From positions 105,820 through 169,819 of the forward strand of contig CAVYTG010000001.1 of assembly GCA_963771515.1 (NCBI GenBank): a DNA stretch of 64,000 nt. The letters run 5' to 3'. Made by a program: the position numbers and the translations under genes. Positions 1,200-28,133 of this stretch are shown here, in pieces (the stretch's first letter is position 1; each line of letters starts with the position of its first letter). The notes under the pieces are model-generated. The model saw only the letters and a list, made by a program, of their open reading frames with translations, made no database searches and was not told the DNA's origin. The stretch comes from an uncultured Gammaproteobacteria bacterium. GTDB lineage: Bacteria > Pseudomonadota > Gammaproteobacteria > CAVYTG01.

Positions 1200-1480
1200 C
1201 ATTTCACTTATGTGACTTTAATAAGCTTGGGGCTGGATTGCCGCGTCGCTTCGCTCCTCGCAATGACGGAGGCTGGATAATTTTACCTAACAACATAACT
1301 GATGACGGGAAGCGATGTTCAATGTGATGAACACGGTAGAAATCTTCATTGGCAGCAAGCACCTTCGTTTTGCAAGCTTTTTAATGGTTAATCAACAGAC
1401 CCTTGCAAAAAATTTAACCCTTTTTCCTCTTGCAGGCTAATTGTTTCAAGGCTTTTCGAATTCTTCAGAAGCGACTAGCT
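1200..1480. repeat. Composite repeat: truncated family-1 MITE (central hairpin plus right TIR only, 1200-1269) fused to a ~190-bp body; inverted copy of 27770..28133
   Basis: 1235-1269 ggattgccgcgtcgcttcgctcctcgcaatgacgg is the family-1 TIR. The reverse complement of 1250-1477 aligns at ~95% identity to 27770-28000. Confidence 0.6.
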
Positions 1481-1490
1481 ATATTTGACG

Positions 1491-2688
1491 TTAGCGTGAA
1501 GCAGGTGAAGAGACATCGTATGAAATTTGTGCAACTTTGTGCTTGAAAGCTCCTGCCTGACAGATCCACTTCCCTAAACGGATTCCGGGCTTTTCAATGT
1601 AGCGATAACAAAGGTCTGCAATGGGGAGTGTGATTAGGCTTAGGACAAGTCCTAACCCAAGCCCTGCGGTCAGAGAATGATGGGTGCAAAGGTCAGGAAA
1701 ATAAAAGTGCATTGCTTCAATCAAGGGATGTAGACCGATGACATTAAATAAATAAAGGCTATAGCTTATGCGGCCTAAATATTGAGAAAAGGGATGATTT
1801 AAACACCTTATCAGTAAACCTCGCTCATTATAATAGACAAAAGCGATTAACCCAAACACACTCATGCCCTGTAAAAATCTTCGAGCCAGCTCAACCATCA
1901 AGCCTGCATCATAAGGAAAGAAATGCTTTGTGGAGAGTGTGAAAAAAAGAAATAAAAATGCAAAACCAGGAGGAAGCATGGAAAAGAACCGTTTAGCTTT
2001 TGGTAAAAGTACCAGGAAGCCGAAAAAGAAACCCATCAGCCCAATGGGTTGATAAAAAGCAAATAGACAACCGTAGAGCAAGGTCAAAATAAAAGCAGTC
2101 CAAAAAAATCGGTCTTTTTGGAAGAGGCAAAACGCAAAAAATACAAAAGGCACAGCCAGCATTTCAGCTTGTAGGGTCCAGGAGGCTCCGTGCAGCGTTG
2201 TTTTATATAAGAAAAGATTTTCCCATAATGCGTTGATTGAAAAGTGGGTATGAAAGCGTGTAGGAGAAACTTGATGGAGTGCGTTAGAAATCCAGTAAAT
2301 GGCTAAAAGGCAAAAAATTAAGGCAGGGTAAATGCGAAACGTACGTTGTATGGCAAAGCGCACAAAATGTTGGATTTTACCTGAGGATAAGTGTTTTTGC
2401 TGAAGAGAGTGTATGAGTATCGCTCCACTTAATACAAAAAACAGATCTACGGCTGAATATCCATTAAAAATAATCAGGCTGATTTTAGGAAAAATATCGT
2501 GAAGGCGTGTCTAACGCATAAACAGGTTTTTTAAGAAGATCGGTAAATGCTGGGTTTACTCCTAAAATAGAATGGAAAAAAACAACGATTAAAGCCGCAT
2601 AGCCTCGTAATCCATCTAATGCAAAAAGCCTTGAAGACTTCATAAAGATATCCAGGAAAATAAAACACGGAAAACCAAGTTTAAACAA
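1491..2688 (-). pseudogene. Acyltransferase family 3 (OafA/OpgC-like) membrane protein, apparently frameshifted near 2485-2513
   Basis: The N-terminal ORF 2485..2688 reads MKSSRLFALDGLRGYAALIVVFFH... and stops at 2485. The C-terminal ORF frame stays open upstream to 2510 and reads ...ISLIIFNGYSAVDLFFVLSGAILIH...QRTFRIYPA..., which carries the acyltransferase-3 hallmarks VDLFFVLSG and RIYP. The two frames overlap, so a single indel would restore a ~390-aa protein. Confidence 0.5.
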
Positions 2689-2775
2689 GGTATTATTGGA
2701 AGTAAAGAGAGTTGGTGGCTTGGTAGTGGTTTTATCTTGGATTGACTATAAAACTTATGGCTTGGACAGAAAAAT

Positions 2776-3555
2776 ATGTTGGAAAATAAAATTGTTTTTA
2801 TTACTGGTGCTTCTAGTGGTATTGGGTTGGCTTGTGCTGAAGCGTTTGCCAAAGTTGGGGCAAAATTACTGCTTTGTGCAAGACGCCAAAATCTGCTAGA
2901 TGCGTTATCTACCCGTTTGCAAGATGCTTATGGGGTAGAGGTCTATAGTTTTCCATTAGATGTTTCTCAGCCTGCGGCGATTAAATCAGCTTTAGAACAG
3001 TTACCTGAGGCTTGGAAAGCCATTCAGGTGTTGGTGAATAATGCAGGTTTGGCAGCAGGTTTGGATTCGATTCAGGCAGGAGATCCGCAAGACTGGGAAG
3101 CAATGATTGATACCAATATCAAGGGGCTGCTCTATGTCACTAAATCTATACTGCCTCAGATGATAAATCGGAATTTAGGTCATATTATTAATATAGGATC
3201 CATTTCTGGGCATCAGGTCTATCCAAAGGGAGCAGTGTATTGTGCGACGAAATTTGCAGTGAATGCTTTAACACAAGGGTTAAGGATGGATTTGTTAGGC
3301 ACAGACATCAGGGTAACTACCATTGATCCGGGTGCTGTGGAAACACAGTTTAGTCAGGTGCGATTTAAAGGAGATATAAAAAAAGCAGCGGCAGTTTATG
3401 AAGGAATGCAGCCCTTAATGCCGGAGGATGTTGCTGATGCCGTATTATATTCTGCAACACGTCCCCAATATGTCAACATAGCTGAAATCATAATGACGCC
3501 AACTGCTCAAGTATCAGCAACGATGATCGCACGTAAAGGCAAACAGGAAATTTGA
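2776..3555 (+). CDS. Short-chain dehydrogenase/reductase, NADP-dependent (YdfG-like)
   Basis: TGASSGIG cofactor motif at the N-terminus and a YxxxK catalytic region (YCATKFAV). 259 aa. Confidence 0.8.
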   Translation: MLENKIVFITGASSGIGLACAEAFAKVGAKLLLCARRQNLLDALSTRLQDAYGVEVYSFPLDVSQPAAIKSALEQLPEAWKAIQVLVNNAGLAAGLDSIQAGDPQDWEAMIDTNIKGLLYVTKSILPQMINRNLGHIINIGSISGHQVYPKGAVYCATKFAVNALTQGLRMDLLGTDIRVTTIDPGAVETQFSQVRFKGDIKKAAAVYEGMQPLMPEDVADAVLYSATRPQYVNIAEIIMTPTAQVSATMIARKGKQEI

Positions 3556-26893: not shown

Positions 26894-26908
26894 TAATATT
26901 GGTGAAGT

Positions 26909-27757
26909 ATGAATTCTATTGAAACAAAAGCGTATAAACCATTTTCTTTTAAAAATTTCTCCCAGTTAGATTGCTCTGAAGATAAAAGTGCACTCATTGC
27001 TTCTATGAAATCTATGTATTGTATTGAGGGGGTGACAATAGCAAAGCAAAACGCCATAGAAAGCCTGGATATAAAGAAAGGGGATAAAATCATCGAGCTT
27101 GGGTGTGGTTTGGGAATAGATGCTCGTAAGCTTGCAACCCAAGTTGGCGACACAGGGCGTGTGTTTGCTGTAGATAAAAGTGTGTTTATGTTAGAAGCAG
27201 CAAAATCCGAAGCGATACCAAAAAATTTATTATTTTTTGATTCGGAAGTTAAAAACTTACCTTTTGAAAATGAATTTTTTAACTCTGCTTATGCAGATAG
27301 ATTACTAGTCAGTCAAGTTGACTATTTAAAGGTATTAAACGAAATTGTTCGTGTAGTGAAGCCAGAAGGTATCGTTTGTATTACTGATTTAGATTATGGA
27401 ACATCTATTTTTGAGATTGATGACATAAAATCTGCAAATTTAATTAAAAATCGTATGATCGAAATCACTCAAAATCCATTGATAGGGAGATCCTTAAAAA
27501 AATACTTTAATACTGTTCATTTAAAAAACATAAACTTACACATTACTAATTATACGATAGATAACTTAGAGACTTTTTGTCAGTCGATTGCTGATTTAAA
27601 AAGAATAGTCAAAGATTTAGCGTACTTAAATCGAATAACTATCGCCGAAGCAGATGAATTATGGAGTCATATCTTAGAAATAGATAAAAAAGGTTTATTT
27701 CTTTATTCTACCAATTTATTTACGGTAAGTGGTAAAAAAACTAAATTGCGAATCTGA
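26909..27757 (+). CDS. Class I SAM-dependent methyltransferase
   Basis: IELGCGLGIDARKLA is motif I and VFAVDKS is the post-I acidic motif. 282 aa. Starts 16 nt after the NRPS stop. Confidence 0.8.
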   Translation: MNSIETKAYKPFSFKNFSQLDCSEDKSALIASMKSMYCIEGVTIAKQNAIESLDIKKGDKIIELGCGLGIDARKLATQVGDTGRVFAVDKSVFMLEAAKSEAIPKNLLFFDSEVKNLPFENEFFNSAYADRLLVSQVDYLKVLNEIVRVVKPEGIVCITDLDYGTSIFEIDDIKSANLIKNRMIEITQNPLIGRSLKKYFNTVHLKNINLHITNYTIDNLETFCQSIADLKRIVKDLAYLNRITIAEADELWSHILEIDKKGLFLYSTNLFTVSGKKTKLRI

Positions 27758-27769
27758 GCTTTATTGAGT

Positions 27770-28133
27770 CGCTTCTGAAGACTTGGAAAAGCCTTGAAAC
27801 AATTAGCCTGCAAGAAGAAAAAGGGTTAAATTTTTTGCAAGGGTCTGTTGATTAACCATTAAAAAGCTTGCAAAACGAAGGTAATGCCAATGAAGATTTC
27901 TACCGTGTTCATCACATTTGACATCGCCTCCCGTCATCAGGTATGTTGTTGGGTAAATTAACTACCCTCCGTCATTGCGAGGAGCGAAGCGACGCGGCAA
28001 TCCAGGCCCAAGCTTACTAAAGCCACATAAGCTTAATCCTTCGATACAAGCATCTGCCTGGATTGCCACGCTTCGCTCGCAATGACGGGGAATAGTTTAC
28101 AATCAATTTTCGAATTCTTCAGAGGTGACTAGT
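27770..28133. repeat. Composite repeat: ~190-bp body plus a complete family-1 MITE (27969..28089) plus a short terminal inverted segment; inverted copy of 1200..1480
   Basis: 27770 gtcgcttctgaagacttggaaaagcc ... and 28106 ttttcgaattcttcagaggtgac are inverted terminal segments. The body is ~95% identical to the reverse complement of 1291-1477. Begins 13 bp after the methyltransferase stop. Confidence 0.65.

Follow-up and report, generated by a model that had tools for sequence, protein, structure and literature searches.

Two inverted copies of a repeat, with 26 kb between them, lie in a 64,000-nucleotide (nt) stretch of an uncultured Gammaproteobacteria genome (assembly GCA_963771515.1, contig CAVYTG010000001.1, positions 105,820 to 169,819; the whole stretch is referred to below as the window). 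Our analyses indicate that this repeat is probably a nonautonomous DNA transposon of the miniature inverted-repeat transposable element (MITE) type. The host element would measure ~200 nt and end in 24-nt terminal inverted repeats (TIRs), would hold a second small element of the hairpin type (family 1), and would have been copied together with it as a composite of ~370 nt. Nested miniature transposons are nothing out of the ordinary; the family itself is new within the collections searched.

Two inverted copies of a composite repeat

Global alignment of positions 1207 to 1477 (plus strand) with the reverse complement of positions 27766 to 28031 gave 249 matches, 17 mismatches, and 5 gap columns, the last corresponding to one 4-nt and one 1-nt indel. 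Identity between the copies was 93.6% without gaps and 91.9% overall, and the longest identical run was 66 nt. A BLASTN search with positions 1150 to 1560 against the window recovered the same pair (1207 to 1476 versus 28031 to 27767; 270 columns, 92.2% identity, E = 2e-110), a degree of similarity that far exceeds chance expectation.

The pair had been noticed in a first-pass annotation of this DNA, which put the identity at about 95%. The repeat itself stands and the figure is slightly overstated, since the ranges given there (1250 to 1477 and 27770 to 28000) are slightly out of register and yield 94.1% identity over aligned bases. With or without gaps, the pairwise identity lies above the 80% below which that annotation was prepared to give up the repeat. 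Its description of the surroundings was also borne out, with the methyltransferase and zapA genes beside the right copy and insertion sequence (IS) remnants plus a broken acyltransferase gene beside the left one, as was its view of the unit as a composite of a specific body and a family 1 element. What it overlooked were the 24-nt TIRs of the right copy and the truncation of the left copy.

The right copy is complete and bounded by terminal inverted repeats

As delimited by its TIRs, fold, and sequence, the complete composite element occupies positions 27764 to 28133 (minus strand), with an uncertainty of ~3 nt at each outer limit. It is ~370 bp long, of which ~200 nt belong to the host element once the nested family 1 sequence is removed, and it takes up the entire spacer between two convergent genes. 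One of these encodes a methyltransferase (26909 to 27757, plus strand) and is the last gene of a nonribosomal peptide synthetase (NRPS) island; 9 nt separate its stop codon (27755 to 27757) from the first base of the repeat at 27767. The other is zapA (28133 to 28453, minus strand; Pfam ZapA, E = 2.6e-16), whose stop codon (28133 to 28135) lies 2 nt past the outer base of the terminal repeat at 28130.

The end motif AGTCGCTTCTGAAGAATTCGAAAA, searched with up to three mismatches, has three matches in the window, at 1453 to 1476 (minus strand), 27767 to 27790 (plus strand), and 28107 to 28130 (minus strand), and none in 100 shuffles. Because the motif recurs inverted at 28107 to 28130, the right copy is bounded by 24-nt TIRs, i.e., AGTCGCTTCTGAAGACTTGGAAAA on the methyltransferase-proximal side (27767 to 27790, plus strand) and AGTCACCTCTGAAGAATTCGAAAA on the zapA-proximal side (28107 to 28130, minus strand). 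The two are complementary at 20 of 24 positions, and comparison with the end of the left copy gives 22 of 24; the element-end consensus is AGTC(G/A)C(T/C)TCTGAAGA. When a single strand of a 377-nt stretch containing the right copy is folded, its ends pair and the family 1 hairpin is nested within (z = −6.8).

The repeat-specific sequence of the right copy is made up of ~30 nt at the zapA end, including one TIR, and ~172 nt at the other end (27764 to 27935). Within the latter, the body-specific interior of the host element (27791 to 27935, minus strand) has the left copy as the only other copy found. The homology shared by the two copies runs exactly to the outermost base of the terminal repeat (1477 and 27766-27767, respectively) and no further, and their flanks on the visible side are unrelated. 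Because the homology ends precisely there, transposition of the composite as a unit is favored over segmental duplication; together with the significant inverted ends and the nesting point shared by both copies, this argues for propagation of the composite as one unit. Its small size (~370 bp, with the host element alone at ~200 bp), TIRs, and lack of coding capacity are the attributes of a MITE. The longest open reading frames (ORFs) of the composite span 41 to 52 amino acids, and a peptide search with the 44-amino-acid ORF of the body found no homolog.

The left copy is truncated next to insertion sequence debris

The left copy (1207 to 1477, plus strand) comprises the distal half of family 1 (1207 to ~1283), the body, and one terminal repeat, which lies at 1453 to 1476 (minus strand; match to AGTCGCTTCTGAAGAATTCGAAAA), 13 nt from the stop codon of an acyltransferase gene fragment. 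The copy breaks off at position 1207, in the loop of the family 1 hairpin. Directly abutting the break is a fragment (925 to 1206, plus strand) formed by the C terminus of an rve-type (IS3/IS481-like) transposase (rve_3, E = 3e-9; ~925 to 1165) plus the ~40 nt between its stop codon and position 1207, which end in TTTCA. From this arrangement we infer that the rve-type IS split the left copy by inserting into the family 1 loop, in which case the remainder of the copy would lie beyond the left edge of the window and position 1206 would be the true end of the IS. Such an insertion would also explain why the left copy adjoins IS debris.

The debris extends further to the left with a DDE_Tnp_1_3 (IS982/IS5-like) transposase gene (1 to 855, minus strand) that runs past the window edge. 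To the right of the left copy is the acyltransferase gene (Acyl_transf_3), in two pieces (1491 to 2363 and 2485 to 2688, minus strand).

The nested element is a family 1 hairpin with a widely distributed arm motif

The family 1 element of the right copy (27936 to 28103, ~168 nt, minus strand; arms CCGTCATTGCGAG...GGCAATCCAGG) is situated just inside the zapA-proximal TIR. The family 1 unit is a long hairpin, and the right copy holds its long form. Alignment of the right and left copies with the other family 1 sequences of the window (5109 to 5283, 5282 to 5376, 39237 to 39418, 47718 to 47879, and 63535 to 63669) showed that the nesting point is identical in the two composites and that the other five copies carry neither the body nor the terminal repeat. 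One family 1 copy in the window sits in the atp operon, between atpG and atpD. Another adjoins a 58-nt inverted repeat (39080 to 39220; 25-nt spacer, 86% complementary), which also adjoins a tRNA-Arg(CCG) gene at 39425 to 39501.

In a BLASTN search of the whole composite against plasmids and phages, the body was unmatched and the only hits were family 1 stretches of 26 to 41 nt (query positions 200 to 331), in unrelated taxa. Mostly these correspond to the hairpin arm CGTCATTGCGAGGAGCGAAGCGACGCGGCAATCC (27969 to 28003), found at 88 to 100% identity in plasmids of Methylosinus, Methylocystis, Novosphingobium, and Halomonas; family 1 stretches also match uncultured phage records from human feces and Helicobacter canis. 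Because plasmid and phage records of such unrelated taxa match it, the family 1 arm appears to be a very widely spread palindromic motif.

Distribution of the body and evidence for additional copies

The body had no BLASTN match in PLSDB plasmids, and its 20-mers had no match in metagenome and viral contigs. The terminal repeat was searched as a pattern of 20 fixed bases in 185,579 representative genomes (a set that does not include the source genome), metagenome contigs, and viral contigs, which gave five, seven, and one match, respectively. All 13 are single occurrences without similarity to the body, come from unrelated taxa where the record is titled, and look like chance. A literature search by sequence string returned chance primer matches only.

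Exact-protein look-ups with the SDR, ZapA, and methyltransferase proteins returned only short Logan contigs of sequencing run ERR11718636. These most likely derive from the same strain as the window, since they match it at 99.98 to 100%. The contigs end at positions 1448, 27815, and 28096; in each case this is 30 nt inward from an element end or from a site of divergence between the copies. A 30-mer common to both copies in the window, followed by a mismatch, accounts for the break at 27815; the 30-mers at 1448 to 1477 and 28096 to 28125 are single copy in the window. If the Logan contigs were built at k = 31, as we take them to have been, the latter two breaks suggest that identical 30-mers occur elsewhere in the sample and that there is at least one further copy outside the window. 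One of these outside 30-mers could come from the half of the left copy that was displaced. The other, corresponding to a left copy-type end that diverges at position 1478, would on the same assumption imply at least a third copy.

The contigs of this run break at each small-repeat family of the window (1448, 5152, 13895, 27815, 28096, and 34101), so it is these repeats that fragment short-read assemblies of this genome. Between 28096 and 34101, comparison with contig L007 revealed just one difference over 6 kb, a 1-nt indel that probably reflects unequal homopolymer lengths in the two assemblies.

The right copy lies at the edge of a 16-kb NRPS island

The conserved order zapA-6S RNA-ygfA is known from Escherichia coli. 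ZapA from the window has few relatives in the protein collection searched, and the contig encoding the closest one (78% identical; contig L008, Logan SRR21358586) was chosen for comparison. L008 carries, in this order, a zapB-like gene, zapA, a 136-nt spacer, 6S RNA (RF00013, 84.9 bits), ygfA, ileS on the opposite strand, and a gene for a Gly/His/Trp-rich protein. It aligns with positions 28703 to 28145 of the window and then directly with positions 11932 to 11226 and 10931 to 8057. Because the zapA-side and 6S-side matches are directly contiguous in L008, the 16.2 kb at 11933 to 28144 can be read as an insertion, with no strand assigned, into the spacer between zapA and its ancestral neighbor, the 6S RNA gene ssrS (11726 to 11909, minus strand; Rfam RF00013, 80.1 bits), or else as a deletion in the relative. 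Acquisition appears favored because the segment has a GC content of 31 to 37% and a flat GC skew, in contrast to the 40 to 46% GC and positive skew of both flanks.

The island contains a family 2 small repeat (11965 to 12067), the NRPS cluster (12225 to 27757), and the composite element. As in other islands of the zapA-ssrS-ygfA locus, a conserved gene order, also present in L008, is broken by low-GC cargo. Unlike in those, the island lacks an integrase, a tRNA target, and flanking direct repeats, and its edges carry two different small-repeat families. Site-specific integration was rejected as an explanation for want of an integrase and of direct repeats flanking the insertion. A composite transposon bounded by the two repeat copies was also discarded, since the 26 kb between them includes ileS, ygfA, and 6S RNA, genes that in L008 form one syntenic block with zapA, and only 11933 to 28144 is inserted.

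Family 2 (GGGGGAGAATCGCGA...CCCCCATCGCGAAT) has three copies in the window (7835 to 8025, 11965 to 12067, and 34051 to 34241), of which the second lies at the opposite island edge, ~60 nt upstream of where the 6S RNA begins. A third family, with ~50-nt inverted arms 35 to 70 nt apart, is found at 13765 to 13931, within the island, and at 49828 to 49964 and 51417 to 51580, in the core genome beside atpC/glmU. The occurrence of this family in both compartments shows that repeats of the core genome entered the island after its arrival.

These data bear on the first-pass suggestion that the composite marks insertion boundaries. The comparison with L008 does place the right copy exactly at the edge of the 16-kb island. 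A marking or causative role found no support, as other core small-repeat families also lie inside the island and at its other edge, and the IS next to the left copy is an apparent insertion into that copy. Because several small-repeat families have colonized the island and both its edges, the edge position of the composite is no proof that it caused the insertion; the link is real but probably incidental.

The island methyltransferase has a single homolog in the large protein collection, 41% identical and in an unrelated context, and no second instance of the island was found there. Other products encoded in the island are a mitochondrial carrier family protein (15524 to 16375; Mito_carr, E = 1.8e-22), an indoleamine 2,3-dioxygenase (17629 to 18825; IDO, E = 1.7e-97), an AurF-like N-oxygenase, MatE and MFS exporters, and a 2,354-amino-acid NRPS with an embedded methyltransferase. 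The carrier and the dioxygenase represent eukaryote-like content that is unusual in a bacterial cluster. On the ileS side of the locus, positions 7231 to 7767 encode a Gly/His/Trp/Arg-rich repeat protein without a Pfam match and with tandem 18-nt repeats at 7405 to 7584; its C-terminal ~40 residues are 68% identical to those of the 131-amino-acid Gly/His/Trp-rich protein encoded at the same position in L008 (4627 to 5022).

Weighing the nested MITE against other explanations

A number of observations weigh against a transposable nested MITE. Only two copies can be read directly, one of them incomplete, and the argument for a third rests on de Bruijn contig ends, not on sequence seen. The right copy has no flanking direct repeat that could represent a target-site duplication. 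Next to GTC...GAC stands TA at two of the termini and GA at the third, with three termini in all to go by; a TA is present 3 nt outside AGTC at all three. The relative L008 lacks the element and also the whole island, so it offers no clean empty site. No IS with matching ends was found in the window, the 185,579 representative genomes, or the metagenome and viral contigs, and the body was not found outside this strain in plasmids, phages, metagenome contigs, viral contigs, or the peptide search.

Several of these points would equally suit the best of the alternatives, according to which the pair remained from a segmental duplication, recombination, or rearrangement, such as an old inversion whose end points they would mark or the duplication of a junction, with the 24-nt inverted ends being incidental. 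Two copies only were seen, an unambiguous target-site duplication is missing, and both copies are in rearranged DNA, one amid IS debris and the other at an island edge. We consider this explanation unlikely because the homology ends precisely at the terminal repeat and not at an arbitrary point, the terminal-repeat motif is significant (absent from all 100 shuffles), the contig breaks suggest additional copies, and the order from zapA to ileS is colinear with that of the relative apart from the island.

Another possibility is that the body is a functional cis element or small RNA (sRNA) maintained downstream of genes, e.g., a 3′ untranslated region (UTR) stabilizer, a terminator, or a MITE-borne sRNA comparable to Coxiella CbsR. 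Each of the three visible termini lies close to the stop codon of a gene running into the element, at distances of 2, 9, and 13 nt; the nested family 1 hairpin is very stable; and a promoter-like site (TTGACA-18-TATGTT) was called at 27918 to 27947 in the right copy. There is also precedent in the MITEs of Coxiella, which give rise to sRNAs (PMC5896051). Against it, the promoter-like site was not called in the left copy, no intrinsic-terminator pattern was called in either copy, and the promoter and terminator scans did not rise above background. No conservation was seen outside this strain. Proximity to stop codons is also expected from selection against harmful insertions in a compact genome, and for this reason it requires no target preference. 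A conserved single-copy functional RNA, which the first-pass annotation had named as the finding that would speak against its repeat, did not emerge either: Rfam searches gave no match in the repeat (whole window at gathering score; 1100 to 1600 at E values up to 10), the only hits elsewhere being 6S RNA and tRNA-Arg, and the body folds no better than shuffled sequences on either strand (z = 0.01 and +1.52), on which grounds a structured RNA was rejected. A functional role of this kind is improbable.

Very improbable, in our estimation, is a more ambitious interpretation in which the composite is actively mobilized with a preference for the bases following the stops of convergent genes, supplying them with 3′ ends, including at the NRPS island edge, or in which the pair flips the 26-kb block with 6S RNA, ileS, and the NRPS cluster.

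Inversion of the segment between the copies, raised in the first-pass annotation, receives no support from the gene order or from base composition. In the window, zapA, 6S RNA, and ygfA share a strand and ileS is on the opposite one, exactly the arrangement of L008. GC skew is +0.08 to +0.21 at 2 to 12 kb and has the same sign beyond the right copy, at 29 to 35 kb (+0.09 to +0.24). Pfam scans of the 26-kb segment and its flanks revealed no recombinase or invertase gene in or beside it. Because the gene orientation matches that of L008 and the skew sign agrees inside and outside the segment, the assembled state is the ancestral, long-standing orientation. A stretch of 66 identical nucleotides is long enough for rare RecA-dependent homologous exchange, and recombination between the copies is possible in principle. 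That the pair constitutes a recombination switch that flips the segment (ileS, 6S RNA, and the NRPS cluster) is extremely unlikely: the copies are indeed inverted and 93.6% identical with a 66-nt perfect run, yet the present orientation equals the gene order of the relative, the skew is positive on both sides of the segment and within its core part, no gene for an invertase or recombinase lies next to it, the left copy is reduced to a broken remnant, and the short-read contigs stop at the repeat and so carry no information on isomers.

A nested MITE therefore remains the preferred reading, and the following sequence of events would account for the observed structures. A ~200-nt MITE with 24-nt TIRs would have received the ~168-nt family 1 hairpin just inside one end. 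The resulting ~370-nt composite would then have been copied as a unit, its transposase presumably provided in trans, via the outer TIRs, by an IS outside the window. One copy may have come to fill the spacer between the methyltransferase gene and zapA, on the border of the 16-kb NRPS island gained by horizontal transfer, and another would have landed 13 nt downstream of the acyltransferase gene. Later, an rve-type IS would have split this left copy and an IS982-like element would have hit the rve-type IS in turn; of this copy, only the distal 271 nt lie in the window. The effects of the element are likely passive and comprise replacement of the zapA 3′ flank, possible stalling or termination of transcription at the long family 1 hairpin, and the provision of homology for recombination.

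Comparison with known elements

With bacterial MITEs the repeat shares a short length (~200 nt for the host element, ~370 nt for the composite), 24-nt TIRs, the lack of a transposase, an intergenic location, a copy number above one, and the TIR as the limit of homology. It differs from them in that no cognate IS and no clear target-site duplication were found here and that copies beyond two are deduced only indirectly.

The closest published analogues, compared by description and not by sequence, are two elements of Coxiella burnetii, QMITE1 and QMITE2. QMITE1 is 300 to 400 bp long, has a ~21-bp TIR and 2- to 3-nt direct repeats, and has no counterpart outside its host (Wachter et al. 2018, PMC5896051). 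QMITE2 is a hairpin, REP-like element of 150 to 190 bp that occurs in 3′ UTRs and serves as a target of IS1111; its core is also present in alphaproteobacteria (PMC5896051). The resemblance is close and extends to the family 1 core, which likewise matches alphaproteobacterial plasmids (Methylocystis, Methylosinus, and Novosphingobium). Unlike the Coxiella elements, the two described here are nested one within the other and would have been copied jointly.

As in nested transposable elements generally, insertions are stacked: family 1 lies inside the element with TIRs, and an IS apparently lies inside the family 1 sequence of the left copy, with a further IS in that one. In most such cases the host element stays put after being invaded, whereas here the composite itself has apparently propagated, as indicated by the shared nesting point.

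Other features and significance

Elsewhere in the window, an ORF at 59395 to 61287 contains tandem repeats of ~126 to 129 nt (60334 to 61200) that look WD40-like from their KVWD motif. The window also holds a GyrB insert domain, a heptosyltransferase gene, and the atp operon; with the zapA-6S-ygfA order, these indicate a gammaproteobacterial host. The eukaryote-like genes (Mito_carr and IDO) hint at a possible member of the Legionellales.

For annotation purposes, the repeat would best be labeled a nested MITE, of which one copy is intact and the other truncated by an IS, in preference to a gene, RNA, or inversion switch. Of more interest than the repeat itself is the NRPS cluster, as a low-GC island in the spacer between zapA and 6S RNA. 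The repeat explains break points in short-read assemblies of this strain. If the genome holds many copies, the element would serve as a marker specific to the lineage and supply dated insertions with which to trace rearrangements in a poorly sampled, IS-rich bacterium.

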